Positions 13,913 through 30,237 of a stretch of 64,000 nucleotides of DNA are shown piece by piece (position 1 is the first letter of the stretch; each line of letters begins with the position of its first letter). The notes beneath the pieces are model-generated. The model did no database searches, was not told the DNA's origin, and worked only from the letters and a program-made list of their open reading frames with translations. The stretch comes from Clostridia bacterium (GTDB lineage Bacteria > Bacillota > Thermoanaerobacteria > Thermoanaerobacterales > Thermoanaerobacteraceae): positions 12,047 through 76,046 of the forward strand of contig DULG01000088.1 of assembly GCA_012840485.1 (NCBI GenBank). The letters are read 5' to 3'. The translations under genes were made by a program, and so were the position numbers.

Positions 13913-14671
13913 TTAGACTCTCCTTTCCACTTTAATAGCATTTTTATAAAGAAAATAAAGCAAAACATAGCCTAATAGTGTACCTGACAGCAAAAATACT
14001 ACATAAACATAAATAAGAACAGAACGCAAAACAGGATAATATTGAAAAAACATTGCAAAGTTGTCAATAAACATGTGATAAAGCATTGCAACAACAAAAT
14101 ATATTAAGAGATTAACGAATTTTTTATTAAAAACATACCTGCTAAAGCCCACTCCTATTATGCCTCCCATAATGCCGTGCATTTGAATAGCAAGAAATCT
14201 TTCAAAAACATAAGCAAAACCGACAAATGTTCCTACAGGAAACTGCATTCCGAAAACTCTACCATATTGAGGATTATAAAGCAAAAACATTAAAGACATC
14301 GCTTCACCTATACCATAAGCAAGCCCTGTATATGTAAAAATCGATGTAGAATATTTTAAATCTTTAAATTGTACCATCATATTCTTATCAAGAAAGTATA
14401 CTACAACCAAAACAGCTAATAATTTAGCTAATTCTTCCCAAAAAGCATTATCCGCCTGCACAACTGTAAGCACATACCACAATGAAGTGTTTAAACTTAA
14501 AAGATAGAGTTCCCAGTGTTTTCTCAATAAAAATATTATTTGAAATAAAAAACCAGAAATGAACAAATACACCCACATCCTGTTTTTTATATGTATATTA
14601 CTTTTCCTCAGTGCTATAAATAAGAACGAAAATATTATAATTACATCAACAAGTACCATTACAAAAAACAT
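13913..14671 (-). CDS. PrsW/YhfC-like glutamic-type intramembrane protease
   Basis: FWEELAK, GLAYGIGE, ERFLAIQMH and YHMFID motifs. Confidence 0.7.
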   Translation of the reverse strand: MFFVMVLVDVIIIFSFLFIALRKSNIHIKNRMWVYLFISGFLFQIIFLLRKHWELYLLSLNTSLWYVLTVVQADNAFWEELAKLLAVLVVVYFLDKNMMVQFKDLKYSTSIFTYTGLAYGIGEAMSLMFLLYNPQYGRVFGMQFPVGTFVGFAYVFERFLAIQMHGIMGGIIGVGFSRYVFNKKFVNLLIYFVVAMLYHMFIDNFAMFFQYYPVLRSVLIYVYVVFLLSGTLLGYVLLYFLYKNAIKVERRV

Positions 14672-14901
14672 TTAAAGCACCCCTATCTCATCGTTTTCAT
14701 TTTCTACAACCATAATTTTATACTCTGTGTGAGACAGCAAAGTTATTAGACAAGAAATTTTTTACACAATACTATAAATTCTACAAAATTCCCTAAAATC
14801 CTTCTTTTATTTCCAAACCATAACAAAATTTAACATAGTTTTAACATATCTCTATCAGGTTACCTTCTCACAGTTCTAACTATTTATAATCAGAAAAGGT
14901 A

Positions 14902-15234
14902 CTATTTTCGTATAAAAACATACAATAAAAAAATGTCAAAAAGTAAAAGTATAACCCCTGCTGCAATATCATATGTCCCATGAAAAATTTTCTTTTTTTC
15001 TTTTGCTTGAGGATATTTTATTGCAATATAAGAAAACAACTGCAATACAGGTATAAAAAATATAAATTCCAACTTAGATACAACATAATTTATATTCCCA
15101 AAAGCATCCCTTTGAAGTGGTATACTTTCAGGTAGATACTTATATGCAAAAATATTTATAATAAAGGTTATAACTGGAAACATCCACCCCCACTTATACA
15201 AATATCTCATTACTCTTTTTGACATTTTTAACAT
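14902..15234 (-). CDS. DUF1648-domain membrane protein
   Basis: YLPESIPLQRDAFGNINY resembles the DUF1648 'LPD.IP.HW...G' motif; GGAGG RBS. Confidence 0.7.
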   Translation of the reverse strand: MLKMSKRVMRYLYKWGWMFPVITFIINIFAYKYLPESIPLQRDAFGNINYVVSKLEFIFFIPVLQLFSYIAIKYPQAKEKKKIFHGTYDIAAGVILLLFDIFLLYVFIRK

Positions 15235-15258
15235 CCTCCTCTCAATTCGCCTGCTTTT

Positions 15259-15304
15259 ATTGTAAATTGTGTTAAATATAAAAACTACTATACTTTTGTA
15301 TAGA
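15259..15304 (-). promoter_or_regulatory. Promoter with 18-bp operator ACTATACTTTTGTATAGA (15287-15304) abutting the -35, 17-bp spacer, -10 TACAAT (15259-15264)
   Basis: Same motif and spacing as at 19010 and 29352. Confidence 0.65.
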
Positions 15305-15334
15305 ACAGAGTTGACTTAAACTTGATATTGTATC

Positions 15335-17002
15335 TTATTCAATTTGATAATACCTCCTATTCCCAAAATAAATCAAAAATTTATAAAAAGCAAAAGTAAT
15401 TATTCCTAATCCAATAGCAATATAAGGCATGTAGATTGCAAGCTTTGATATTCTGGTTACCACATTAATTGACAAAATCACAAATAAAATCAATAAAACC
15501 ATAGATATGAGTACATTGATATTTTGCCTCACCACCACCCTTGGATTCTCCCAATTTAACATGGGTATACAAAATTCACAAAACAATCCTATGATAAAAT
15601 AAATGTTCAATATAAAAAAACCTATCATAAAAGCAAGTACAAGATAAATCAGGCTCAATCCTGTTACAAAAAAACTAAATGAACACGTAAGTATGCCAAA
15701 TATAATGCTTAAAATATTACAATGTAGAAGTTTCGCTTTAATGTATTCTTGAGGATTTATAGGCAATGATTTTAGATAATAAAACATCTTCCCTTCTCGT
15801 GATAAAGCAGTTGATGCTATCATATTAAAACCACCGACTAAAACATATCCTAAAGCTATAAGCAGTGTAATAAAATATTTTGCATTTAAATCTTTTTCTA
15901 TATCAGAAACTACTTTTAGTAAATCTGGCATACCTGAATAAAGAGAATAAAGCGAAAGAAAGGGAATAATTAACGTCATAGCGAATCCATAAATAACAAA
16001 TGTCGAATCACGATAAAAAAGTTTTATGTCTCTCTGTAGCAATGCCATAACCTCACTCTGACGTTTAAAGAGCAACCCTTCCATATTATAAACTTTTTGT
16101 TTATTCTTGTTACTTATCTCTTCGCTGCGGGATATTACATCAACTAAACTGCTTGATAATAACTTTAAAATGAGAATAAGACCTATTAATGAAATGAAAA
16201 TGAAGATTAATAAATATTTAAAAGAAATTATCACTTTTTCTGTAATAGCCTTATAAGCAATATTTACTGGATAAAATATTTTTGAAAAATCTACTAACAG
16301 GGAAAGCTTTTCTTTTATAATACTTACACCTGTATTTTTATTTGCTTCAAAATAATTCTGCATCCCTGTAATTTCTTTAAGTAAAATTATAAAGACAATG
16401 TTTATTATAAAAGCAGTTATATTAGCGAACCCTCTCTTATCAAAAAAATATCCTGCTCTTTGTATTAAAACAAAAACAAAAAATTGCAATGCCATTGGAA
16501 TTACAGGTATTAGCACTATAACTACACAAGCAAAAACATAATATGTAAAAGGTTCATTGAAAGTTATACCATTAATAATCAATACTGGCATAAGTGCAAA
16601 TAGTGAAAGCAATAATTGAAATATATATCCTGGAACAAATCTGCTGAGCAAAATTTGCCATGGTTTTAGTGGTAAAGTCATTACGTAACTATTTTCTCTA
16701 CTATTGCTTACTGTTGAAATGTATGAACCCGCTAAGCCAAACGTTAGTAATAAAAGAAATGTAAAATTTAAAAGCCCCTCTATCATCAAATTTTGTTCCC
16801 TAGTTAACGTTAAATTGTAATAGAGAAATTTGTTAATCTGTATATACGCCTTGAATATATTATAAAATAATAATAAAAGTAACCCATATATGAAAAAGTT
16901 TAAATACAGTTTTTCTTTTTCATACTTCCATGAATACTTAAATCCATGAAATCCATATAAGGACTTATAATTATATTTTATTAAAGTCCATAATTGCTTC
17001 AT
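15335..17002 (-). CDS. ABC exporter permease (large, multi-TM)
   Basis: 555 aa; TLPLKP, ALSREGK and SLPINP motifs typical of ABC-2-like permeases. Confidence 0.8.
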   Translation of the reverse strand: MKQLWTLIKYNYKSLYGFHGFKYSWKYEKEKLYLNFFIYGLLLLLFYNIFKAYIQINKFLYYNLTLTREQNLMIEGLLNFTFLLLLTFGLAGSYISTVSNSRENSYVMTLPLKPWQILLSRFVPGYIFQLLLSLFALMPVLIINGITFNEPFTYYVFACVVIVLIPVIPMALQFFVFVLIQRAGYFFDKRGFANITAFIINIVFIILLKEITGMQNYFEANKNTGVSIIKEKLSLLVDFSKIFYPVNIAYKAITEKVIISFKYLLIFIFISLIGLILILKLLSSSLVDVISRSEEISNKNKQKVYNMEGLLFKRQSEVMALLQRDIKLFYRDSTFVIYGFAMTLIIPFLSLYSLYSGMPDLLKVVSDIEKDLNAKYFITLLIALGYVLVGGFNMIASTALSREGKMFYYLKSLPINPQEYIKAKLLHCNILSIIFGILTCSFSFFVTGLSLIYLVLAFMIGFFILNIYFIIGLFCEFCIPMLNWENPRVVVRQNINVLISMVLLILFVILSINVVTRISKLAIYMPYIAIGLGIITFAFYKFLIYFGNRRYYQIE

Positions 17003-17028
17003 GATCCAGTCATCTCCAGAAAAATTTC

Positions 17029-17724
17029 TTATAAATCCTTTTTGTCATCTTTTTTAATTTTTAACTCATTAATAGTCCCCGTATAAAGTATCCTGCCATT
17101 TTTTATAATTGCGATTCTATCGCATATCTCCTCTGCTATCTGCATAATGTGTGTTGTGATAAATACTGTTTTACCTTGCTGGGCTAAACTCCGCATAATC
17201 TCTTTTAAATTTTTGATTGCTTTTGTATCCAGCCCAATCACTGGTTCGTCCATAATTAAAAGCTCCGGTTCATGAATAAGTACTCCTAAAATCAATAATT
17301 TTTGTTTCATTCCATGCGAATAGCTCTCTATTTTCATATTTAAAGCATCATAAATCTCCAGTATTTTACCATATTTTTCAATGTTTGATTTTCTAATTTT
17401 GCTATCTATTTTATATATATCTGATATAAACCTTAAAAACTCTAATCCTGTAAGTTTACTAAATATATCTGGGTTATCTGGTACATATCCAATTTTTTCT
17501 TTTGCTTTAAGAGGTTCTTTAATTACGTCATATCCATTAATTAAAACTTTTCCGCTATCGGGTTTTAATATACCAGTAATAATTTTTACAGTTGTTGTTT
17601 TCCCAGAACCATTTGGACCAAGAAAACCAAAAATTTCACCTTTATGTACTTCAAGGTTTAATGAATCTACAGCCTTTTTATCGCATCCATAGTATGTCTT
17701 TGATACATTTTCTAAAATAAGCAT
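17029..17724 (-). CDS. ABC ATP-binding protein, probably truncated by 10 aa by a premature TAA
   Basis: GPNGSGKTT, YSHGMKQK, IMDEP; reading past the stop gives in-frame EIFLEMTGS then TGA overlapping the next ATG. Confidence 0.85.
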   Translation of the reverse strand: MLILENVSKTYYGCDKKAVDSLNLEVHKGEIFGFLGPNGSGKTTTVKIITGILKPDSGKVLINGYDVIKEPLKAKEKIGYVPDNPDIFSKLTGLEFLRFISDIYKIDSKIRKSNIEKYGKILEIYDALNMKIESYSHGMKQKLLILGVLIHEPELLIMDEPVIGLDTKAIKNLKEIMRSLAQQGKTVFITTHIMQIAEEICDRIAIIKNGRILYTGTINELKIKKDDKKDL

Positions 17725-17742
17725 AAATAGTGCAGCTCCTTA

Positions 17743-18063
17743 TTAGAAAATTTTTAAATTTATTAAGATGATTACTATATCAACAATTAATACAAATAGA
17801 TTACCAAATATAGAATATAAGTCAGTATAAAGAGTTGTGTTTTTCCCTTTAGTTTTGAGTTTCACATACCCATAAACAAATAATTGCATCAAGGGAATAA
17901 TAAAAACAAATATTGTTTTAGAGACAGTATTTGAAATACTCCCATCAAAGTGCCACTGAATAGCAACTGTCTGTGGCAATGCTTTATAAAAAATGATGTT
18001 TATGATAAATGTGAAAACAGCAAATAACCAATTATTTTTACCAAAAAAATTTATTGCTCTCAT
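17743..18063 (-). CDS. DUF1648-domain membrane protein
   Basis: ALPQTVAIQWHFDGS motif; paralogous to 14902-15234. Confidence 0.75.
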   Translation of the reverse strand: MRAINFFGKNNWLFAVFTFIINIIFYKALPQTVAIQWHFDGSISNTVSKTIFVFIIPLMQLFVYGYVKLKTKGKNTTLYTDLYSIFGNLFVLIVDIVIILINLKIF

Positions 18064-18099
18064 AAAATTTTTCTCCCTTCTTATATTACGTTTTTCTTT

Positions 18100-18960
18100 T
18101 CATTTAACTTTTTTCTTTTCATACAACAAGCTAAATATAAGAACTACAAATATCATTAGAATTATCGTTATAAATATAACAAAATTTGATGCATGTATTT
18201 TATATATGTTGTAATATAATGTATCAAATATCACTAATTCGAAAAGGGAATATATAAGTATTAAAAGTACTGGTAAAAATTTACTTACCATAATCTGCGA
18301 TATGCAATAATACGGCAGAAAAATCCCAATCCATCCCAATATCAATATAATTTCATCTACCACTATTGCTATAGTTTTCTCAACAACCCACTCATCCGGG
18401 TTTCCCGTCAATCCAAAGTGAATATACACCTGGGGTGGTAATTTGACATATAAAATTAAATTAATTACTGTAGATATAGCAAAAATTAACACCGACAAAT
18501 AGATAACATATTTTTTTTCAGTTTTAATGGCATTTTTTGAATTTATATGATTTAAATCTCCTACTTCTTCTACTTTATAACTTCTATTACTATTATAACC
18601 TCGCCTTACCCCATTTTCATCAAATATTTTGTGCAAATGTTTTTCTGTAAGATAAATTATAGATATAAATAAAGGAATTATATAAATACCAAAGGATATT
18701 CCCATTATAGCTGAAGATACATTAAAAATGAACATTATTACATTAATTACAAATAACAATATTGAAAACAAAATGAATAAATCGGCAGAGTATCTATTTG
18801 CTTCTTTGAAAACATCTTCATTTTTTGTAGCAAATTCAGTTCTATAACCATAAAAATAATTTATTTTTTTAGGAGGAAAATATTTTAATACCACCCCTAT
18901 TAATAAAAAGAATAACGGAACACCAAAAGTAAGGAATAATCTACCTATAAAGTCTTCCAT
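18100..18960 (-). CDS. SdpI/YfhL-family immunity protein fused to a DUF1648 domain
   Basis: PPKKINYFYGYRT..A....F.EANRY (SdpI motif) plus LPPQVYIHFGLTGNPD (DUF1648). Confidence 0.8.
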   Translation of the reverse strand: MEDFIGRLFLTFGVPLFFLLIGVVLKYFPPKKINYFYGYRTEFATKNEDVFKEANRYSADLFILFSILLFVINVIMFIFNVSSAIMGISFGIYIIPLFISIIYLTEKHLHKIFDENGVRRGYNSNRSYKVEEVGDLNHINSKNAIKTEKKYVIYLSVLIFAISTVINLILYVKLPPQVYIHFGLTGNPDEWVVEKTIAIVVDEIILILGWIGIFLPYYCISQIMVSKFLPVLLILIYSLFELVIFDTLYYNIYKIHASNFVIFITIILMIFVVLIFSLLYEKKKVK

Positions 18961-18981
18961 ATATTCTCACCTCCGGTATTA

Positions 18982-19027
18982 ATTGTAGTACTTATTTCCT
19001 ATAAAGTCTACTATACTTTTGTATAGT
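18982..19027 (-). promoter_or_regulatory. Promoter with perfect operator ACTATACTTTTGTATAGT (19010-19027), -35 TAGACT, 17-bp spacer, -10 TACAAT
   Basis: Read directly; upstream of the SdpI gene RBS GGAGGTGA. Confidence 0.7.
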
Positions 19028-19059
19028 AATGCTATACAAAAATTCCCCTTTATGTGTTT

Positions 19060-19838
19060 TTACTCCTTATCTATTAAACCTAATTTAACAGCTTTTGCTA
19101 TAGCTTCTTGTATTTTTTGTAAGCTTTTCCATTATTTTCTTTTTGTGATATTTAACTGTAATGGGTTTAATTTTAAGAAATTTCGCGATAACTATTTCTT
19201 TATATCCCTTAGCTTGCAATTGCAATATTTCTATTGGTTTCCCTTTTAAATCCATTTTTATTTTTTCAATTTCTTTTTCCTTCATTTTCTCTTCGTATTC
19301 ATTTATAATTTTTTCAGACAGCAGTTTTATTACAATAGTCATCTCATCTGCAATTTTTTTATCAATTGTTGATATATCCAAATATCCTATTATCTTTTCT
19401 CCGTTTGTTGCTAATGGCATTGCTATACAATACCATTTTCTAAAAATATCCCAGTAATGCTCCTGTGGTTTTAAACAAACTGCTCTTTTTAATCTCATTG
19501 CCATTGAAATTGCATTTGTACCGCAGCTTTCTTCTTTAAAGGATATCCCCAATCGAAAGCCAGACTGCCTTATGTATTCTTCTTCCTTTATATTACATTT
19601 TACATCTATTAAATATCTTTCTTCATCAGTCAGTAAAAAAAGATATTGTCTTTCTGCCTAATCATTTTCTATACTTCTATTAAAAGCATCTATGAGTACC
19701 TTGTTCTGTGCTATTTTTAATCCTAAATCCCTCTAGATTTAGAATTATTAGTGGTGTAGTTATTGAAGGGTCAATACCCATTTCAGTACAACGTTTATAA
19801 GAAGAAAGCCATTCCCCTTGCGGACATAAAAAATCCAT
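19060..19838 (-). pseudogene. GAF (AcoR-like) plus LuxR-HTH regulator, frameshifted near both ends; paralog of 29440-30237
   Basis: MDFLCPQGEWLSSYKRCTEMGIDPSITTPL start, early frameshift and stops, GISFKEESCGTNAISMAMRLKR core, second frameshift before QEAIAKAVKLGLID*. Confidence 0.85.
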
Positions 19839-20057
19839 TTTTAATACCTCTAAAATGATATAAACGTTTTTAAAAATTTATTAATTCCTTAAACATTATA
19901 CAACATTTAAAGTTAAATTTGTGGATTTTGAAACGAAAGTGTCATTTTGGGGAACGAAAATGCATTTTTTACTTAATATCTTACAATTATGGGACTATTG
20001 TTATCGTAAAGTTTTTAAAAATATATCAGTAACATCTAAATTCGTTATCGGACAATA

Positions 20058-20129
20058 ATCGAGTAGAGAGCCACTTTACAGCGGCTCCCTCTCACAGAAC
20101 CGGACGTGCGCTATTAACGCATCCGGCTC
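20058..20129 (-). mobile_element. Group II intron 3' remnant (domains V and VI only)
   Basis: GAGCCGGATGCG-TTAATA-GCGCACGTCCGGTTC (DV with AGC triad), then a DVI stem with bulged A ending CTACTCGAT; no RT ORF and no 5' domains. Confidence 0.85.
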
Positions 20130-20173
20130 TTCATATCATCTTTTACTTTTATCGTAGCTATGACACAAACAGG

Positions 20174-20224
20174 GGGGACGGTTCCTTTTGTCCGAAAAAA
20201 ATTCAGACAGAAGGAACCGTCCCC
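20174..20224. repeat. REP-like hairpin GGGGACGGTTCCTTTTGTC ... GACAGAAGGAACCGTCCCC
   Basis: 19-bp near-perfect inverted repeat; family members at 8255, 38461, 39914, 47247, 49319. Confidence 0.85.
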
Positions 20225-20279
20225 TTTGTCTGATTATATTTTTTCTTGCCTCTTCCCCTATTGTCTAAAGTACTCAAAG

Positions 20280-21473
20280 TCACAGCTCTTTTTCTAATCC
20301 TATTGCCCTTTTAAAAGGTATACTGGAAATTAAAGCTGTAATTAAAGATAAGAAAAGTGCAGCATAAAGACCCTTTTTGTCACTTAAGACTCCAAAGGAG
20401 TAAATACATAGAATTGTAGAAACACTAATAAACAAACTATATATTGAAATAATCGTTGCACGCTCTGAAGAAGGTATTAACTTATTAAAATAAGACATAA
20501 AAATCGGAGTGTGTGCAGAATATACTGCTGTATAAATAATATAAGGTATAAACGAATACTTGGGAATCGCATACATCATAAATATAAACAATGCAGATGT
20601 AATACTGACAATCATTAGTGTGCGAGCTGCCCCTTTAAATCTTTCAGCTATCCTGTCAGCATAACGGGGCACAAAAATACTAAGTACCATCGTTAATGCT
20701 AAAATAATACCAAACAATTCTACAGGTATGCCTGCCCGTTCGAAATAGGGCTGCCACAACATTGACATGATTCCCGATGAAAAGAAAAAGAAAAAAGCTC
20801 CAATTGTAATAAATAATAAAATCTCATGTTTAAATAGATACACAGTTCCTTTAGCAATTTTATTAAAATACTCTCTGTAACTGTATTCGTCCGTTTTTTT
20901 CTCTAATTTAGCTTCTTTGCCCGCTAAAAATACGTAAATAAAAACCAAAAAAATCCCTATACCTTCTATTAGCCAGATTTCTCTAAAGATATTATAACGT
21001 ACTAAAACGCTGCCTCCTAAAAATCCTATCGTACTACCTAAATAGTTAAAACTTGTAAGACGTCCCCAGTATTTTGTCAGGTCTATTTCTTTTTGACCCA
21101 AAAGAAACGAATCAGCAAACCAAGATTCAAAGGCTCCAGAATTAAGAGTTGCTCCAACTCCTGATAAGAAATATAAAAATAATAAAACTGTAAAAGAGGT
21201 GTTGAAATATATCCCAATAGAAGTTAAACTGCCAATCAATAAAGATAAAAGAACAGAAAATTTACGGCTATATGTATCAGCAAAAGCACCCGTAGGTATT
21301 TCGAATAATATGACCGCTATGTGGTTTATTATTATGAGGAGTGAAATTTGTGAAAAATCTAAATTAATTTTATTAAAATATATTACCCAAAATGGTGCCA
21401 TTAAAGATGTAAAAAAACTTGAAAACAATGTTACCGTCAAGAAAAATCGTACATTCCTTTTTAAATTTTGCAT
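20280..21473 (-). CDS. MFS transporter (probable exporter)
   Basis: 12-TM pattern; FEIPTGAFADTYSRK motif A and SGAFESW. Confidence 0.88.
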   Translation of the reverse strand: MQNLKRNVRFFLTVTLFSSFFTSLMAPFWVIYFNKINLDFSQISLLIIINHIAVILFEIPTGAFADTYSRKFSVLLSLLIGSLTSIGIYFNTSFTVLLFLYFLSGVGATLNSGAFESWFADSFLLGQKEIDLTKYWGRLTSFNYLGSTIGFLGGSVLVRYNIFREIWLIEGIGIFLVFIYVFLAGKEAKLEKKTDEYSYREYFNKIAKGTVYLFKHEILLFITIGAFFFFFSSGIMSMLWQPYFERAGIPVELFGIILALTMVLSIFVPRYADRIAERFKGAARTLMIVSITSALFIFMMYAIPKYSFIPYIIYTAVYSAHTPIFMSYFNKLIPSSERATIISIYSLFISVSTILCIYSFGVLSDKKGLYAALFLSLITALISSIPFKRAIGLEKEL

Positions 21474-22459
21474 TTATTTAAATCCTCCTCTGAAGGAATA
21501 AATTTACCAAATGTTAGGAAGTTTTCAGCAATACAATAATTCGTAGAACAGAAGCGAGCAAATTCACATTTGGTACACAGAAATTTTTTGCTTAATCTTT
21601 TGGAATAACTTCTTATCCTTTTTGCTTTCTCACTATTCCATATTTCAAAAATATCTTGTGATTTTATGTTGCCTAGAATTATTTTATCATCTACTCTTTG
21701 CTCGAAAATCCGGCATGGAAGTACATTCCCATCAGGTTGAATTTCAAAACCGACGTTTATATTGCAACCTGGAACCTTTTGGTCTTCAATAGACTTGGGT
21801 ACATCTCCCATTATTTGGTACAATGTTTGACAATTGTTGCCCCCAATCCCAAGGTTTCAAGCGTGCAAATTTAACTGAAGTAACTCCCAAATCGCTTAAC
21901 AATTTTACAATTTCTTCTATTTGCATCATATTATGTTTTCCGTAAGTTACTTCAACTTCCACTTGAAATGCATTTGAAAATTTTTTCAAATTTGAAATTG
22001 AAGAAAAAACCTTTTTAAATGTCCCCTCTCCCCTGATAAAATCATGAGTCTCGCTATTACTTCCTTCTATTGATAAACTATAACTTACTACGTGATAAGA
22101 ATTCATTATCTCAATCTTTTCTTTCGATAAATTTATACCATTAGTAACTAGTTCAATAGGGATTTTGTGTTGATTAAATATTTCCATAATTTTAAAAAAA
22201 TCCTTTCTAACTGTTGGTTCGCCACCATTAAAATCTCGTATTTCTCCATTTGTTCAGCCAATTTTTTTATATCATCTAATTCTAATTCTTTTATTTGGTA
22301 ATGTCTTAAACTCCCAACCAAACAGTGTTTACATTTTAAATTACATTTATAAGTTAATAGTAGTGATAATACTAACGGTGATTCGAATTCATAAATGTGG
22401 TCAATACTATAGTTTGTATTATTTCCTTCTCTGTTCTCTCCAATAATTATTTTCTGCAA
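21461..22459 (-). pseudogene. Radical SAM/SPASM enzyme (PqqE/MftC-like architecture) split by two frameshifts
   Basis: CNLKCKHC in the first piece; GGEPTVRKD in the shifted frame; VTNG; SPASM C..C..CTKCEFARFCSTNYC in the last piece. Confidence 0.85.
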
Positions 22460-22553
22460 TGGCTTACTAATTGCGCTGCTTATGGAATTCTCGAGATATT
22501 TTTTATTAATTTATACCATATATATTCCCACAAAATCTTATCATATCTAATTC

Positions 22554-23324
22554 TCAATACTCATTCCATATCCCTTCAACTTTACTTTTATTGTAAATAT
22601 ATCTAAAAAAGGATATACCAATGATAAAATATAAAAAGCTATTTATGCATAACAAAAACATCTGACTGAAAAATACAGGCTGCTTGTCAATTAAACTCTG
22701 TGAAATTAATATGCCCTGTGTTAAAGGCAAACTTTTGCTAATAATTTGAAATAAGATTGGCATGGAATTAATATCAATTATCGTCCCCGTAAAAAATAAT
22801 AAAATGTAAGATAAAATAGTCTCAAAAGAAGCCGTTTTAGTAAATCTTAAAGTCAGTCCTCCTAATAATAAACTAAAGCCCAATAGTCCTATTAACGTAA
22901 TTATTAAAATGGGTATTATTTTTATATTAAAAACTATATTTATGGGTAAGGTTAATTTGATAACTATAAATAATACCATAACTTTGATAAAAGTAATTGC
23001 AAGCCATGTTAGTGTTTTTATTAAACATATTACTTCTAAAGATACAGGCTTTAGAAGCAACTGTTCTAATGTACCTACTTGTTTTTCAAAGGATATCGAT
23101 ACAGATACCTCACTTATTATGTTAGCCGCGAGAAACCAATATAAAAAGCCAATGTAATAACTGTCTTTTACAGCAGCATAATTTCTAAATTCCAAAAAGA
23201 ATCCTGCAAAAAATATATAAGTTACAATCATATTTACTATATGATCGGGGTAATAAGTTTTTACTTCGATCATATACTTAGATAATTCCGCTTTTATAAT
23301 ATTAAACATCTTCAAAGCTGTCAC
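22554..23324 (-). CDS. ABC-2 type permease
   Basis: FEKQVGTLEQLLLKP motif, 6 TM, LPLTQGI. Confidence 0.85.
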   Translation of the reverse strand: MTALKMFNIIKAELSKYMIEVKTYYPDHIVNMIVTYIFFAGFFLEFRNYAAVKDSYYIGFLYWFLAANIISEVSVSISFEKQVGTLEQLLLKPVSLEVICLIKTLTWLAITFIKVMVLFIVIKLTLPINIVFNIKIIPILIITLIGLLGFSLLLGGLTLRFTKTASFETILSYILLFFTGTIIDINSMPILFQIISKSLPLTQGILISQSLIDKQPVFFSQMFLLCINSFLYFIIGISFFRYIYNKSKVEGIWNEY

Positions 23325-24261
23325 TTCCTAACTTCAAAAATTTGTACATTATATCTTCAAGGCTATCTTGGCTTTTAGAAATATGAGTAACATAAATATT
23401 TCTTTTTACCATATCACCTAAAAAGCTATTTATAAGCCTATTACTATCAATATAAACTTCTATTTCAGTAATATCATTTTCCCTGCGCACCACATTAACT
23501 GTATCAAAATACTTTTTTATTTCTGCATCATCTAAATTTCTTTCCACTCTTATTAAATATTTATTGCCTGAATATTTATTTATCAACTTATCTACTGTAT
23601 CCAAAAATTGTATTTTCCCTTCACCTAATATCATCACTCTATCAGCTACTTTTTCAACGACATCCATTTGATGTGACGTAATAATAACTGTCACACCCTC
23701 CTCCTTTGACAAATGTTTTATTTTTTCAATCATGTCCATTTTAGACACCACATCAAGCCCTAAAGTTGGCTCATCTAAAAACAATATCTTTGGTTCATGG
23801 AGTAATGAGATTATAATTGATAATTTTTGCTGCATCCCTCTTGAAAAATTCCCTACTTTTTTATCTTTATCCTCATATAGCCCAAAAAATTTTAATAATT
23901 CCTCTCCTCTTTCTCTAATTTCTTTTTCTTTTAACCCCATCAATCTTCCGAAATAAAGTATATTTTCATAAGCCGACAAATACCAATAAATATTTCTATT
24001 ACCTTCTAACACAACTCCGATTTCAGTGTAGTAATCCTTTCCTATAGTTGTAATTTCCATATTTTTATATAAAATTTTCCCTTTTGAAGGAGTTAATAAA
24101 TTAACCATCAATTTTATCAATGTAGTTTTACCTGCGCCATTTTCTCCTAATATGCTGAAAATTTCTCCTTTATCAACATGAAAACTTACTGAATCTAAAA
24201 CCAATTGCTTTTTTCTATTTGTCTTATATGTTTTGGATAGCTCTTTTATTTCTAATATCAT
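23302..24261 (-). CDS. ABC transporter ATP-binding protein
   Basis: GENGAGKTT, FSRGMQQK, FLDEPT and C-terminal SLEDIMY. Confidence 0.92.
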   Translation of the reverse strand: MILEIKELSKTYKTNRKKQLVLDSVSFHVDKGEIFSILGENGAGKTTLIKLMVNLLTPSKGKILYKNMEITTIGKDYYTEIGVVLEGNRNIYWYLSAYENILYFGRLMGLKEKEIRERGEELLKFFGLYEDKDKKVGNFSRGMQQKLSIIISLLHEPKILFLDEPTLGLDVVSKMDMIEKIKHLSKEEGVTVIITSHQMDVVEKVADRVMILGEGKIQFLDTVDKLINKYSGNKYLIRVERNLDDAEIKKYFDTVNVVRRENDITEIEVYIDSNRLINSFLGDMVKRNIYVTHISKSQDSLEDIMYKFLKLGSDSFEDV

Positions 24262-24482
24262 ACTAATCTTTTTTCCTCCATTCTGTTTGGAGCTTTAACA
24301 TAAGTATAGCAAAAATAACAGTAATATTACTTTATAATAAATAATATTATGACAAAACCAAAAAGTAATATCACAGAATTTAATTACTTTAACAAGCAGA
24401 TATTGATTTTAAGCTACTACAGGTAGAATTTGGTATGTTGTTATATTTGAGTCTAACTTCCTTGAAAACTCTCAACTACCAT

Positions 24483-25757
24483 TTATTTATTTCCCTTGGC
24501 ACTATTTTTATAGTTCTCTACAATTAATGGAATATCATTTTCATCCAATTCTTGTTTAGGACATATATTACCGTAAACATTCTTTTTATATACACACCAT
24601 CCTCCGCAAATAATTTTATAATCACAATCAGTACATTCAGAATTCATATTTTCTTTTTCTATAAATTGACTAACTCTGGAATAATAATAATGGCTTCCAT
24701 ATTCAGATATATGTGAAATTAAGTATTGTGTATTACCAATTCCAGATATACACTTATAGAGATATCCATCCGGACTAATTATAAATACGTTGTCCCTAAA
24801 AAAACTACATGTAAAATAACTATTTCTGTAGAAAGGCACATAATTATTTCCATACTTTAAACCTATTTTATGTGCATTTAACCAAGCTTTATTTATGTCG
24901 TTTTTATAAGCATATTTAAAAGAATTCTTTCTAGACTCAAATACTATACTAAAAAACACGGGATAATTTATTCTTTTTTTTCTTAATTCTATAAACAATT
25001 CTTCAATATGATTTATATTCAACAAATTAATGTTGCAGTTTATTACAATATTGATTGATTCATTAAACTCCTTAGAAATAGCTTCTAGATTATTTATTAT
25101 CTTATTGTAACTTCCACTGTTGTCCATTCCAATTCTCAACTGATCATGGATTTTTTGTGGTCCATCTAATGTTACTTGTAGCAAATCTATTTTCATATTT
25201 ATGAGTTCATTAACTGTTTTTTTGTTAAGTAAAGTCCCATTCGTAATAATCGATTTGATAATTTTGAGAGATTTTCCTTCATTCGATATTCCATTAATAA
25301 TATTTTTAATTTTTCTCTTATGTAACAAAGGTTCTCCTCCAATAAAACATAGTTCAATTTGCTCTGGACTTGTCTTTTTAACAATTCCTTTAATAAATTT
25401 AATTACATCTTTTTCTGTTTCCTCAGTCATAACCTTTTTACTTTTTATTTCCCTTTGATAACAATAAACACATCTTAAATTACAGTTGTAATTTAAATGA
25501 ATTATGAAAGAAACTGAACGACTCGAATACTTAATTTTATTCATAACCATTTTAACAAGTTTTTCTTCATCTATTTCGCTAAATTGTAAATATAATTCTT
25601 TCCTTAAATATTGTAATTCTTCTTGGTTCAATTTTTTAATAAATATTTCTACATCTTCTTTAGAAGTAGGTAAAGATATTAAAGAATTAGTAATTGAATT
25701 ATACAAAAGAGTTTTTTTATCATCTACAGGTATTTTAATTACATATTTGCTTAACAA
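24483..25757 (-). CDS. Radical SAM/SPASM peptide maturase with an N-terminal extension (probable RRE)
   Basis: CNLRCVYC, GGEPLL, TNG, QVTLDG; SPASM Cys set C..C..CTDCDYKIICGGWC..C; about 90-aa N-terminal extension. Confidence 0.9.
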   Translation of the reverse strand: MLSKYVIKIPVDDKKTLLYNSITNSLISLPTSKEDVEIFIKKLNQEELQYLRKELYLQFSEIDEEKLVKMVMNKIKYSSRSVSFIIHLNYNCNLRCVYCYQREIKSKKVMTEETEKDVIKFIKGIVKKTSPEQIELCFIGGEPLLHKRKIKNIINGISNEGKSLKIIKSIITNGTLLNKKTVNELINMKIDLLQVTLDGPQKIHDQLRIGMDNSGSYNKIINNLEAISKEFNESINIVINCNINLLNINHIEELFIELRKKRINYPVFFSIVFESRKNSFKYAYKNDINKAWLNAHKIGLKYGNNYVPFYRNSYFTCSFFRDNVFIISPDGYLYKCISGIGNTQYLISHISEYGSHYYYSRVSQFIEKENMNSECTDCDYKIICGGWCVYKKNVYGNICPKQELDENDIPLIVENYKNSAKGNK

Positions 25758-25785
25758 GATTTTTTACCTCCTATTCTTGATTATT

Positions 25786-27072
25786 TTATGTACAGAGTTG
25801 AATTATACCTTCAACTATTCCATTTTGGATTTCTTCTTTTTTGCAGAGAACTTTATTAATATCATATTTGTTCTCTATTTTTTCTCTTTTACACCCCCCC
25901 ATACAAAAAGGTAAAAATGTACACGTCTTACATCTTTCTTCATATTCTATTTCATCTTCATCATAACTATACAACTTTAATAGAATCATGTCTGTATCAT
26001 CCTTAATGTTTCCTATAATAAATTTATCACTACCGATTCCGTATATACACTTACTTATATTCCCGTTGGGTTCTATTATAATCGAATTCTTTCTATTAGC
26101 TAAACAAGGTCCATATCCTATAAATTCATCATTCTCTTTGTTATAACCATATATTTTCAAACTCTTTAATAAAGTTTTATATATTATAGCTAATTCATCA
26201 GGTTTTAGTTTATGCACTCTCGAAATATTATTTTCAGTACTTATCAAAGAATTAAACTTTATATAAACTTTGTTTCTGTATTTTTTAGGAAATATATCTA
26301 AAAATTTAATTATACTTCTGTAATTATATTTATCAAAATTCATATTGATTACAATCTCAAACCCATTATCTATTAACATCAAAAGATTATTATATATCTT
26401 TTTAAACGTTCCAGAGCCATCATGTAAAAATCTTCTTTCGTCATGGCATCTTTCAATTCCATCAATAGTTATCTGAAAACTGTTAATATTTAATTTTTTG
26501 AAGTTTTCAATCATCTTTTCATCAATTAAATATCCATTAGTCACTATGTTAACCAGACTTCTAATTCCAAAATTATTTTCTATGTAACATAAAAACATAC
26601 AAACTTTTTCTATTGTCTTCATTTCTAGCAATGGTTCCCCGCCAAAAAAGTTAAAATCTATAACACGACACCTACTTTTAATAATAACATTCTCTAAAAA
26701 TTGCAGCATTTTGTCTAGTTCCATGTTTTTATAATTTTTTTCTTTTTTAAAACCTTCATAACAATATGGACATTTAAAATTACAATTGTATGTCGTTAAA
26801 AATGTTACAATAAAATATTCATTTTGCCATTTTTGCTTATTTAACCAATACTTATACAATAAAAATTCATCTATATCATCATCCACTATAAACCCTAATT
26901 CACATAAATCTTTATATTTTTTTTTGGCAGTATGATAATTTATTTTTTTTATATTTTCTTTAAGCTGGTAGTATTCTCCTCTTTCTATAGAGATAATTGA
27001 TCTCGTTAATGTATTAAAAATTATAACGTTATTATCTAAAGTCTTCTCATAATTAAAAACCGAAAATTTCAT
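25786..27072 (-). CDS. Radical SAM/SPASM peptide maturase with an N-terminal extension (probable RRE)
   Basis: CNFKCPYC, GGEPLL, TNG, QITIDG; SPASM C..C..CKTCTFLPFCMGGC..C; AGGAGG RBS. Confidence 0.9.
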   Translation of the reverse strand: MKFSVFNYEKTLDNNVIIFNTLTRSIISIERGEYYQLKENIKKINYHTAKKKYKDLCELGFIVDDDIDEFLLYKYWLNKQKWQNEYFIVTFLTTYNCNFKCPYCYEGFKKEKNYKNMELDKMLQFLENVIIKSRCRVIDFNFFGGEPLLEMKTIEKVCMFLCYIENNFGIRSLVNIVTNGYLIDEKMIENFKKLNINSFQITIDGIERCHDERRFLHDGSGTFKKIYNNLLMLIDNGFEIVINMNFDKYNYRSIIKFLDIFPKKYRNKVYIKFNSLISTENNISRVHKLKPDELAIIYKTLLKSLKIYGYNKENDEFIGYGPCLANRKNSIIIEPNGNISKCIYGIGSDKFIIGNIKDDTDMILLKLYSYDEDEIEYEERCKTCTFLPFCMGGCKREKIENKYDINKVLCKKEEIQNGIVEGIIQLCT

Positions 27073-27261
27073 ATTTAATTTTCTCCTCCTATGTTATCTT
27101 CTATTTTCTCTCATTATTTAGCTTTTTTAATTTTTCTATCATAATAAGGTAGATATCATTAAAGAATATACCAGGTATTTCTATTATCATTTTATTCACT
27201 GGATCTCTGCCTTTAATTCTTTTTTTATCTGCTATTATGCTCTTTAAATTATAATGTAAAC

Positions 27262-27798
27262 TTATTTTAACTTTTTCAAAATTTGTATAAAATCTAGTAC
27301 GTTTTCAACTTTAATTATTCTATCATCATCTATTACTAAATCTGTCAATTTAGGCACTAAAAAATAATCATACTGTCTTTCTTTAAAAATACTAAACTTT
27401 TCTTTCATCCCACCAACTTCTAAAACATTTCCGTATAAATCTATTTCACCAGTTGCTAAAATATTTTTACCTTCTACATATTTCCGCATGTTCTCATCCA
27501 AACAACTATACATAACAGACATAAAAATTCCTAACCCTGCAGAAGTTCCATCTTTATAAATACTCCCATTAGTAAAATGTACATGAAAATCGAATTCATT
27601 AATTATTTTTTTATCTATTTTTAACAAAATATAGTTGCTTTTTATTACTGAAAGTGCAACTTGTACCATTTCCGCAATTGCATTACCTACAACTCCTGTA
27701 ACCAAGCAGTTACCGTTGCCATTCTCAAACCTCATACATTGCACCGAAAAACAATCAACAATACCTTCATTATTTATGGCAGGTACATCTATTCTCAT
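27262..27798 (-). CDS. Stand-alone Lon protease proteolytic (S16) domain, no AAA+ module
   Basis: HVHFTNGSIYKDGTSAG (catalytic Ser) and TGEIDLYGNVLEVGGMKEK (catalytic Lys) align to E. coli Lon PKDGPSAG / TGEITLRG..IGGLKEK; GAGGAG RBS. Confidence 0.88.
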   Translation of the reverse strand: MRIDVPAINNEGIVDCFSVQCMRFENGNGNCLVTGVVGNAIAEMVQVALSVIKSNYILLKIDKKIINEFDFHVHFTNGSIYKDGTSAGLGIFMSVMYSCLDENMRKYVEGKNILATGEIDLYGNVLEVGGMKEKFSIFKERQYDYFLVPKLTDLVIDDDRIIKVENVLDFIQILKKLK

Positions 27799-28043
27799 TT
27801 TTCTCCTCTCCCATTAGTATAAACAATAAATTGGAAATAAGTAATTAATAAAAAATATGATTACTTTCTTATTTTTCTTATTTTCCCTTTACATATATTT
27901 CGTTTTATTAATGTGATATAGTATAGTACAGTTAAAATTTGGAGATATTTCTTTAATCAATATATTTTTACATATTTTTTGTGCCGCTATTCTTATTTCG
28001 TTTTGAAAATCCCTGTTGAAATCAATATTTCTTTATATTTACA

Positions 28044-28089
28044 AGCATAGCATAATAAGTATTGTCTACAGTACTTATTATGCTATGCT
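28044..28089 (-). terminator. 18-bp perfect stem-loop downstream of the precursor peptide gene (terminator or mRNA-stabilising hairpin)
   Basis: AGCATAGCATAATAAGTA (28044-28061) / TACTTATTATGCTATGCT (28072-28089). Confidence 0.75.
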
Positions 28090-28101
28090 ATTTAATGAAT
28101 T

Positions 28102-28233
28102 TTAATCAATAGTTAAACGCTGTGTTTTTCTGCAACATGAATAAATCAAATCAGCATTTTCGATCTTGTGTCCAGTTCTAATAACTTTAACTTTTTTTAA
28201 TTCATTAGATTGCTTCTCCTGTTTTTGAGTCAT
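28102..28233 (-). CDS. Putative RiPP precursor peptide, 43 aa: MTQKQEKQSNELKKVKVIRTGHKIENADLIYSCCRKTQRLTID
   Basis: Manual translation (below the ORF-track cutoff); strong AGGAGGTG RBS 6 nt before ATG; first gene of the rSAM operon; followed by a strong hairpin. Confidence 0.8.
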   Translation of the reverse strand: MTQKQEKQSNELKKVKVIRTGHKIENADLIYSCCRKTQRLTID

Positions 28234-28388
28234 CGCTTACACCTCCTTCTTTTTTAAATATTTGGTCTTTGCAGAATCCTAAAATCCTTATGTATTGAAA
28301 GATTCTGCTGTATATTTTCAAAGGAATTCCTCCACTTTTTTTGAATTTATAGAAAGAGACAAATCCCCAAAAAAAGGGAGGAACTCCT

Positions 28389-28835
28389 ATGAAAACTGAA
28401 GCTAAATAAACACTATTTTTTGCCGATATTTACGATAATGTTTAAACCTTTTTCTGAAGAAGATAAATTTAAGTTTATTAAACTCTTTGATTACTTTATT
28501 GATTTTTCTAAACTTACTCCATCTTCTTTCTATAACCATTATTATTCTCAATTTGACGTCATAGAGATTTTTATCTTGAATCTATGCTTACTGCTTTGTT
28601 TATTCAAAAAATCCTTTCTATTTCTACTTTTCAACTCCGTGCTTATGTCTTTAAACTCTTTAAAGAATTAAGAGAACTTTATGGCTTTAAAAGAGTCCCT
28701 CATCCTTCCAATTCCCTAGATTTAAATCCATTTTCCTCAAAGATTTGGAGAATTTCTTCAATAATCTTGTTAATTTAACTGAATCTATTTGTCAGCCTAT
28801 TAATCCTTCACTTTCCAATATACTCTTGGTTTAAT
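28389..28835 (+). mobile_element. Degraded IS transposase, N-terminal part (ISNCY/IS1182-like; family uncertain)
   Basis: Stitched frames give MKTEAK*..SFYNHYYSQF..RDFYLESMLTALFIQKILSIST..KELRELYGFKRVPHPSQFPRFKSIFLKDLENFFNNLVNLTESIC; several stops and frameshifts; GCAGAATC/GATTCTGC inverted repeat near 28271-28308. Confidence 0.7.
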
Positions 28836-29323
28836 TATTATGCAGAACTTGGTGCCTTCGAATATCCTCTATTTTTGAAAAAGTTTTTGGCTTGGTAATT
28901 TGTTCTTATAGTTTGAATATACCTGACTTTCTATTTCCCAGTGTAAGATTGACTTTTATTTTTCTATGTTTAAGAATTTAGACTTGTTTTTAATACCGGA
29001 ATCTCTTTATGTTGCTATTGTAGTTGTTAAGCTAAGTAAATTTTGTAAGTTTAAGTTTTTTATTAATCTGATGCAATTGACTTAATTTTCACTAAATTTA
29101 GTTTGGGCCACTTTTCAATATTTGACTTTCAGAGGATATTTATGATTTTTTAGCTACTCTTTTGTCTTTTCTTATCCCTGACTATTTTCTTTGTGTTTAA
29201 TTGTCAGTTTTGATTATTATATATTTTATATCATACATACTTTGTTTTTTAATTCTGATTATTTTAATTTACTTTGCATAATCATAACATTTCTGACATT
29301 TCTGCACTTATTTTTTTATTTTC

Positions 29324-29369
29324 ACTATACAATGAAACTAATAGCATGTCTACTATATTTTAGTATAGT
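29324..29369 (-). promoter_or_regulatory. Promoter with operator ACTATATTTTAGTATAGT (29352-29369), -35 TAGACA, 17-bp spacer, -10 TATAGT, pointing to the RiPP cluster
   Basis: Same geometry as 19010 and 15287. Confidence 0.65.
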
Positions 29370-29413
29370 TTTTATTACATTTCCAGTTAATGTTTACATA
29401 AATAAGCAAAAAA

Positions 29414-29431
29414 ACTATACAAAAGTATAGT
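29414..29431. promoter_or_regulatory. Perfect palindromic operator copy ACTATACAAAAGTATAGT
   Basis: Reverse complement of the 19010-19027 copy; 62 bp from the 29352 copy. Confidence 0.65.
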
Positions 29432-29439
29432 CTCAAATT

Positions 29440-30237
29440 TTAATCCACATCTACCAGTCCCAACTTAATTGCCTTTATTACTGCCTCTTTAGTGTTTTTT
29501 ACTCCAAGTTTTTCTACTATCTTTCTTTTGTGATATTTCACAGTCACAACCCCTATCCCAAGAGCTTCTGCTATGTCTGATTCTCTGTATCCTTTTGCCT
29601 CTAATTCCAGTATTTTTATCTGGCTGTCATTTAATTTTATCTTTATCTCATTTATCTCTTTTTCTTTTACTATCTTTTCATATTCACTCGCTATTTTTTC
29701 AGCCAGCAGTTTTATTACCATTGATACTTCACTTGTGATTTTTTTGTCAATAGTTGATATATCCACATAGCCTACTATTTCCCCGTTTTCTACTATTATA
29801 GGTGAAGCAATGCAGTGCCATTTTTTAAATATGTAACAGTAGTGTTCCTGAGGTCTTACATACACTACCCTTTTTAATCTCATTGCCATTGAAATCGCAT
29901 TTGTCCCACAGCTTTCTTCTCTAAAGGATATTCCCCGTTCAAAGCCTGAATCTTTTATACATTTTTTCCCTTTTGTACTGCATTTTACATCCATCAAATA
30001 TCCTTCAATATCAGTAAGCAAAAATAGATACTCGCCTTTTACCCACTCCTCTTCTACACTCATATGAAAAGCTTCTATGAGTTCTTTATTTTTATGTACT
30101 TTCTTTTGCAAATCTTCTGGATTTAATATCACCAATGGCAGAGTTATTGAAGTGTCAATACCAATTTCTATACATTGTTTATATGAAAAACTTAGTTCTT
30201 CTTGCGGACATGAAAAATTCATTTTTATACCCTCCAA
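29440..30237 (-). CDS. Transcriptional regulator: AcoR-like GAF domain plus C-terminal LuxR HTH
   Basis: GISFREESCGTNAISMA, HYCYIFKKWHCIASPI (GAF); LNDSQIKILELEAKGYRESDIAEALGIGVVTVKYH..KIVEKLGVKN (LuxR HTH). Confidence 0.9.
   Translation of the reverse strand: MEGIKMNFSCPQEELSFSYKQCIEIGIDTSITLPLVILNPEDLQKKVHKNKELIEAFHMSVEEEWVKGEYLFLLTDIEGYLMDVKCSTKGKKCIKDSGFERGISFREESCGTNAISMAMRLKRVVYVRPQEHYCYIFKKWHCIASPIIVENGEIVGYVDISTIDKKITSEVSMVIKLLAEKIASEYEKIVKEKEINEIKIKLNDSQIKILELEAKGYRESDIAEALGIGVVTVKYHKRKIVEKLGVKNTKEAVIKAIKLGLVDVD

Follow-up and report, generated by a model that had tools for sequence, protein, structure and literature searches.

The window (the whole stretch of DNA that was analysed, 64,000 nucleotides) encodes a stand-alone Lon (S16) proteolytic domain between the gene of a short precursor peptide and two radical-SAM (rSAM)/SPASM maturase genes, see Table 1. 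The protein belongs to a family that is separate from canonical Lon and keeps the catalytic Ser-Lys dyad, and the family gene occupies the same slot in every locus that we compared. We suggest a putative role as a cluster-dedicated peptidase that is independent of ATP and takes the leader, and perhaps also the tail, off a thioether-type RiPP; judging from sequence and gene context, we consider this role probable. For a broader claim the chances appear about even. It would be the first S16 protease dedicated to a biosynthetic cluster, i.e., a lone Lon P domain that works without ATP as a sequence-specific leader peptidase, and its substrates, the YSCC peptides, would be a new RiPP family made by two paralogous rSAM/SPASM enzymes.

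Table 1. Features of the cluster in the window, listed in order of transcription.
Feature	Position	Strand	Basis and remarks
LuxR-type (GerE HTH) regulator upstream of precursor, context only	29440..30237	-	Pfam GerE
43-aa precursor peptide MTQKQEKQSNELKKVKVIRTGHKIENADLIYSCCRKTQRLTID	28102..28233	-	ORF, RBS AGGAGGTG, ungapped alignment with 13 other loci
20-bp hairpin directly 3' of the precursor stop codon	28045..28088	-	Terminator-like scan and RNA fold
Stand-alone Lon (S16) proteolytic domain, 178 aa; putative precursor-processing peptidase	27262..27798	-	Pfam Lon_C; Ser86 and Lys134
rSAM/SPASM maturase type A, 428 aa	25786..27072	-	Pfam Radical_SAM, Fer4_12, SPASM
rSAM/SPASM maturase type B, 424 aa, CNLRCVYC	24483..25757	-	Family matches; found in every locus compared
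ABC transporter ATPase, DrrA-like	23302..24261	-	Pfam ABC_tran; NCBIfam drrA subfamily; conserved downstream of the rSAM genes
ABC-2 type permease	22554..23324	-	Pfam ABC2_membrane; conserved partner of the ATPase
Third rSAM/SPASM gene, shorter type, pseudogene in three ORFs	21461..22459	-	Radical_SAM N-part, C-part and SPASM matches
MFS transporter, end of the co-oriented run	20280..21473	-	Pfam MFS_1; not conserved in other loci

The Lon_C ORF begins with an ATG and has GGGAGAGGAG ahead of the start. Residues 22–150 match Pfam Lon_C (PF05362) with an E-value of 2.1e-23 and 83.4 bits, against a gathering cut-off of 21.1, and the ORF is therefore a Lon_C family member at the profile level. Pfam also gives a weak ChlI-type match and no match to a PDZ domain. 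The dyad was mapped by phmmer against PDB sequences, where the best alignment is to the isolated proteolytic domain of E. coli Lon (1RR9, the S679A mutant). Ser86 of KDGTSAG is aligned on the catalytic Ser679, and Lys134, the second Lys of GGMKEK, on Lys722 of the E. coli GGLKEK. The two catalytic residues are 48 residues apart in the window protein and 43 in E. coli Lon, because the alignment contains gaps of 1 and 4 residues. An earlier reading of the sequence alone had noticed the ORF between precursor and maturases, its intact dyad and a 5-aa insertion in the Ser-Lys spacing, and the gene order and the alignment confirm these points.

The sequence-only reading had also found neither an AAA+ nor an N domain, and both the genomic context and the predicted structure bear this out. 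Only about 300 nt, holding the hairpin, separate the ORF from the upstream precursor gene, and no long reading frame or AAA+ remnant was found in this space; thus, neither domain can be encoded there. The AF2 model, built on 23 family sequences, has a pLDDT of 93 and a pTM of 0.91, with the first strand starting at residue 2 and the last helix ending at residue 177. In a Foldseek search with this model, Lon P domains make up all of the best 50 matches in the PDB (TMq 0.66–0.81; 0.73–0.81 among the top 49, with an alignment of about 183 columns). According to the model, residues 1–178 are exactly one complete Lon P-domain fold and nothing more. A signal peptide is not predicted, as residues 2–8 are a strand of the fold, and the protein would therefore act in the cytoplasm before export.

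The window protein belongs to a family of about 35 stand-alone Lon_C proteins, which are 160–220 aa long and have a common start position. When 1.84 billion representative proteins were searched exhaustively with HMMER, about 25 proteins of 160–202 aa were found among the best matches, including eight of the top ten. The alignment of these short proteins covers the whole query, beginning at residue 1, while canonical Lon (about 780 aa) matches from residue 23 onward only. A word-indexed homologue search with the single Lon_C protein returned two relatives only. With an HMM of the family, all members but two score 160–218 bits, the two low scorers being one truncated sequence (127 bits) and one frameshifted sequence (131 bits), and no canonical Lon scores above 114. 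A maximum-likelihood tree with 34 members of the family and 70 Lon P domains sets the family apart on one side of a long branch with a support of 100/99.

Identity of the family members to the window protein is only 28–45% in two family alignments of 24 and 23 sequences. Twelve positions are invariant in both: Q20, T34, G35, H74, K82, G84, S86, G117, D120, G123, K134 and P149. Since the dyad and the residues around it are invariant at such low identity, the active site appears to be under maintenance.

The genome of the window has a full-length lon, a 792-aa open frame on another contig, and in addition three further Lon_C-containing genes. The Lon_C ORF is not a fragment of lon and its family is a distinct clade, so that the fragment origin, which the sequence-only reading had named as evidence against its own proposal, does not hold.

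The stand-alone family is rare. No family-type Lon_C was found in 400 other genomes sampled across the phylum, and on PLSDB plasmids only canonical Lon was found, on large replicons. A search of genome contigs with the narrower family alignment gives matches that are almost all canonical Lon. One long match from this search, in Acetatifactor (L009), was rejected as it is the C-terminus of a 1021-aa ORF and not a family member. In NCBI, the family protein of Ignavigranum is named only 'S16 family serine protease'. A reading of the locus as a defence system was dropped because no PADLOC model has a Lon_C match and the rSAM enzymes match generic viperin-type rSAM models only.

The precursor of the window has a basic N-terminus, a leader strand (KVKVIRTG), the core YSCCRKTQR and a variable tail of 4 aa. 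The precursors of the 14 loci are 30–56 aa long and can be aligned without internal gaps. They have a common layout, in which a basic N-terminus is followed by an IKVIKxG-like strand, a linker of 10 residues, the core and a variable tail of 0–8 residues. The core YSCC[RK]K[ST]Q[RH] is invariant in 13 of the 14, the divergent variant being SCSHSQR in L022. The precursor with its YSCCRKTQR core matches no Pfam or NCBIfam model.

The residue before Tyr31 (position -1) is mostly I, V or A, and also M, Y, E or S, and position -2 is mostly Leu; the linker before Tyr31 is weakly conserved. There is no sharply defined cleavage motif, since the residue before Tyr31 is not conserved. Lon prefers hydrophobic P1 residues. 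The pattern at -1 and -2 is compatible with this taste, but it is not diagnostic.

The hairpin after the precursor gene has a folding energy of -29.2 kcal/mol (z = -6.5), and none of 200 shuffled sequences folds as well. Lying between the precursor gene and the enzyme genes, it probably acts as an attenuator or stabilises the mRNA.

The co-oriented run in the window lies on the minus strand and reads, in order of transcription, LuxR-type regulator, precursor, hairpin, Lon_C, rSAM-A, rSAM-B, ABC ATPase, ABC-2 permease, broken rSAM and MFS transporter. The rSAM enzymes of the different loci fall into two orthologous groups, A and B. Type A contains a CNFKCPYC motif and an N-terminal extension of about 90 aa, and its orthologues are found in the same position in most loci. 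The nearest NCBIfam models of rSAM-A are CefB, TIGR04463 and Clo7bot, and it scores below the cut-offs of all of them. Pfam finds no C39 peptidase domain in the ABC-2 exporter. An intact third rSAM gene (455–460 aa) is present in L054:6086-7453 and L055:3760-5142, and the precursors of these two loci end in an extra Cys (QRC).

The sequence-only reading had proposed a neighbourhood survey for adjacency to rSAM/SPASM genes, and had taken a lack of co-occurrence as an argument against its own proposal. Such a lack was not observed, as the linkage is strict. In this survey of 14 independent loci, most of which are short metagenomic contigs without known taxonomy, the order is precursor, Lon_C and one to three rSAM/SPASM genes in all 14. 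Twelve further family members were taken for context solely by how far their contigs extend. In these loci, the rSAM genes after Lon_C encode about 410–460 aa each, and the small ORF ahead encodes 30–56 aa. The ABC ATPase and ABC-2 permease come next in every locus with enough contig.

Lon_C overlaps the first rSAM gene by 4–26 nt in seven of 12 loci, which points to one translationally coupled operon. A 32-aa ORF between Lon_C and rSAM-A in the window (27101-27199) has no family matches and was judged not to be real, as there is no space for it in most other loci, where the Lon_C and rSAM genes overlap. Lon_C is the only protease conserved across the 14 loci; a second one was not found.

The linkage was also examined in the reverse direction, by scanning a metagenome collection with the back-translated core of the precursor, using Ser codons as in the known loci. 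This gave 21 matches, of which 16 are out-of-frame chance matches, about as many as expected, and five are genuine precursors. All five are followed by a Lon_C family gene and then by rSAM genes. Two of the loci are new (L061 and L066), and L063, from a JGI sample, belongs to the same organism as the window.

The same coupling is seen at the level of genomes. No type-B rSAM orthologue was found at E <= 1e-45 in the 400 other genomes of the phylum, and among all 401 genomes the Lon_C family and the rSAM-B orthologues are both found in the window genome (G000) only. Thus, the Lon_C family and the type-B rSAM appear and disappear together.

Some copies of the cluster are decaying. In L001:1-5769, Lon_C and the rSAM genes contain frameshifts, and IS elements (rve, ISL3) are inserted around them. 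In Ignavigranum (L018:10485-12488) the type-A rSAM is a 191-aa N-terminal remnant, and the type-B gene is in two pieces (237 + 195 aa) in one assembly and intact (425 aa) in another.

Structurally, the closest known proteins are the P domains of LonA (E. coli Lon ~585-784, PDB 1RR9/1RRE; Meiothermus 4YPM and 5E7S), which have the same fold with a Foldseek TMq of 0.73–0.81. The Ser-Lys dyad lies in the motifs DG(P/T)SAG and GG(L/M)KEK in both, and the HxH and (T/S)GE motifs are also common to them. However, the window protein has 1- and 4-residue insertions between Ser and Lys, and no ATP-driven unfolding is expected of it because the AAA+ module and the N domain are absent. It also differs from LonA in being part of a long-branch clade and encoded by a RiPP operon gene rather than a housekeeping gene. 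Against the LonA equivalog models (TIGR00763, NF008053) it reaches 76.5 bits versus 608, and covers model positions 636–763 only.

Another S16 protein for comparison is SepM (NF041438), which trims the competence-stimulating peptide of Streptococcus mutans. SepM is membrane-anchored, has a PDZ domain, and acts extracellularly on an unmodified peptide, outside any rSAM cluster. The likeness is in the S16 domain and in the small-peptide substrate, which for the window protein is a proposal. The score against the SepM family model is 23.9 bits, with a cut-off of 200, and, unlike in membrane-anchored SepM, the N-terminus of the window protein is part of the globular fold in the AF2 model.

Known cluster-encoded leader peptidases of thioether RiPPs come from other protease classes: C39 domains of PCAT exporters, TrnE (S41) for thuricin CD, AlbE/AlbF (M16) for subtilosin and ThnP (S8) for thurincin H. 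The proposed job of the window protein would be the same, and its slot with precursor, rSAM/SPASM enzymes and ABC transporter is similar, but it belongs to clan S16 with a Ser-Lys dyad and its role here is inferred. Two properties by which a RiPP leader peptidase is recognised are found: it is encoded in the cluster beside precursor and maturases, and its presence and absence are coupled to those of the core enzymes.

The maturases are nearest to the CefB (Cys-every-fifth), TIGR04463, Clo7bot and PapB-type enzymes, with which they have in common the CxxxCxxC motif, the SPASM domain and an N-terminal peptide-binding extension. Their scores are far below the cut-offs of the named families, e.g., 196 versus 600 for CefB. 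As in clusters of the sactipeptide or ranthipeptide type, rSAM/SPASM enzymes are combined with a short Cys-containing precursor, and thioether cross-links are the most likely modification of the YSCC product.

In open-access papers and preprints, we found neither an S16/Lon protease described as part of a RiPP cluster nor the YSCC core motif. This agrees with the remark in the sequence-only reading that S16 is not a standard class of RiPP leader peptidase, and suggests a clan that has not so far been used for this purpose. The cluster with the YSCC[RK]K[ST]Q[R/H] core is most likely a previously undescribed radical-SAM RiPP family. Two literature candidates were set aside: the thuricin-like cluster of Thermoanaerobacter mathranii (PMC3132745, PMC4289311) is a different cluster, and the mention of S16 in PMC9826248 concerns housekeeping Lon.

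We suggest that an ancestral Lon P domain lost its AAA+ and N domains and was recruited as the dedicated peptidase of the YSCC family. The pathway could then run as follows; (i) the 43-aa precursor would be overproduced from its own gene, which the hairpin sets apart from the enzyme genes, (ii) the N-terminal extensions of both rSAM/SPASM enzymes would bind the leader strand (consensus IKVIKxG) and the core would be modified, most likely by thioether cross-links from Cys33 and Cys34, (iii) Lon_C would cut off the leader through the Ser86-Lys134 dyad, after or along with the rSAM modification, and (iv) the small product would be exported by the ABC-2 transporter. The linker of 10 residues is the probable place of the cut, perhaps at the bond just ahead of Tyr31, and the variable C-terminal tail may be trimmed too.

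When isolated, the P domains of LonA are very weak peptidases, and the active site can adopt an inactive resting conformation. Activity of Lon_C in the absence of an AAA+ partner is therefore not to be assumed, and either the active site of the family would be constitutively competent or it would be activated by the leader or the maturases. The co-option of an ATP-independent Lon domain for leader removal, which the sequence-only reading had proposed as one of two options, is supported at the genomic level, and from this we infer the cleavage.

Many RiPPs are processed by housekeeping proteases, and a protease encoded in a cluster can therefore have another role. It could, for example, clear unmodified or mis-modified precursor or the freed leader, or set the level of the maturases, and another protease would then make the productive cut. 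Lon proteases are classically quality-control enzymes, and the hairpin after the precursor gene suggests a large excess of precursor over enzymes; both would suit such a role. However, a second conserved protease is missing from all 14 loci, and quality control explains poorly why the linkage is invariant across hosts with GC from 0.25 to 0.62, which makes this role unlikely.

Self-protection, the other option of the sequence-only reading, would assign the protease to immunity, with Lon_C degrading the mature or re-entering peptide in the cytoplasm of the producer. A cytoplasmic protease that has an intact dyad and is encoded in the cluster would suit this, and so would the poorly defined cleavage motif ahead of the core. 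We consider it improbable. Immunity-type functions have candidates of their own, as ABC-2 transporters are already present in every locus that is long enough and SdpI genes are found beside the cluster in two loci. Further, the fixed slot between precursor and maturases and the overlap with the rSAM gene fit a biosynthetic enzyme, and cross-linked thioether peptides usually withstand proteases. Leader or precursor processing is favoured over self-protection because Lon_C is the sole conserved protease, the exporter has no peptidase domain and separate immunity-type genes (ABC-2, SdpI) are present.

A non-catalytic role, in which the Lon_C fold would serve the rSAM enzymes as a subunit that binds peptide or forms a scaffold, can be imagined from the weak ChlI-type match and the translational coupling with the rSAM gene; the Lon_C-like domains of RadA and ComM do not act as proteases. 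But it is very unlikely here, as the dyad and the neighbouring catalytic-site residues are invariant, which is unexpected after loss of catalysis. The ORF could also be seen as a decayed, functionless piece of full-length lon, as it is short and contains the C-terminal Lon domain only. The probability of this is negligible given the intact lon elsewhere in the genome, about 35 relatives of similar length that start at the same position and form one well-separated clade, the strong RBS, the conserved context and the absence of an AAA+ remnant upstream.

SdpI-family genes are found beside the cluster in two unrelated hosts and are candidate immunity genes. In the window, positions 14902-18960 contain an SdpI-DUF1648 fusion, two DUF1648 proteins and an ABC pair, and in Ignavigranum a 166-aa SdpI gene (L018:9139-9639) lies directly upstream of the precursor. 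Besides the LuxR-type regulator in the window, signal-sensing regulators also flank other clusters (L056:6139-8763; L058:695-2794; L022:288-1529), namely a LytTR response regulator with an AgrC-like kinase, a histidine kinase and an HTH-TPR protein (RNPP-like). Quorum regulation of the YSCC product is therefore conceivable, as is a role of the product itself as a signal.

The host is a thermophilic anaerobe of the Thermoanaerobacter/Caldanaerobacter group, as the GlgA of the window clusters at >= 90% identity (at least) with proteins of these two genera. The cluster and the SdpI operon (window 14500-29500) form an AT-rich island with a GC of 0.25–0.30, and the flanking glycogen genes have 0.33–0.37. 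The sample of 400 includes two genomes of the same genus and three of the same family, and the cluster genes are found in none of these. Related loci range in GC from 0.25 to 0.62, and their sources include chromosomes of Ignavigranum ruoffiae (L018-L020). An 8.3-kb contig (L057:1-8312) contains a precursor, Lon_C, two rSAM genes and the ABC pair, and otherwise only Mob_Pre, Rep3 and two small ORFs; it looks like a small mobilisable plasmid devoted to the YSCC RiPP. The GC of the island, the GC range of the loci and the plasmid copy together point to a mobile accessory module.

Leader peptidases are a bottleneck on the way from a RiPP gene cluster to its product, and each new class of them is a new tool for the traceless removal of a tag or leader. 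With about 175 residues, a self-sufficient Lon P domain from a thermophile would make a small enzyme that needs no cofactor and is probably thermostable. If the proposed role is true, a Lon P domain can be an autonomous, substrate-specific enzyme, which would bear on the long-standing question of what turns on the active site of Lon when the ATPase is absent. The YSCC peptides themselves are an uncharacterised and very compact RiPP family with a near-invariant 9-residue core, spread over hosts of widely different GC and onto what appears to be a small mobilisable plasmid, and their product could be an antibiotic or a signal.

A more distant type of stand-alone Lon_C (P0169, 165 aa; P0171 is a relative) is found in L080:1916-5863, where Ser and Lys are apparently kept (KKDGASCG ... 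YLDIK). Its operon contains small ORFs (73 and 80 aa), an arginase-family protein, a RimK/ATP-grasp protein, the Lon_C and a 285-aa protein of no known family. From this distant type in an ATP-grasp/arginase-family operon, it can be speculated that the recruitment of a Lon P domain to a peptide-maturation operon happened more than once, with this type as a possible second, independent case.
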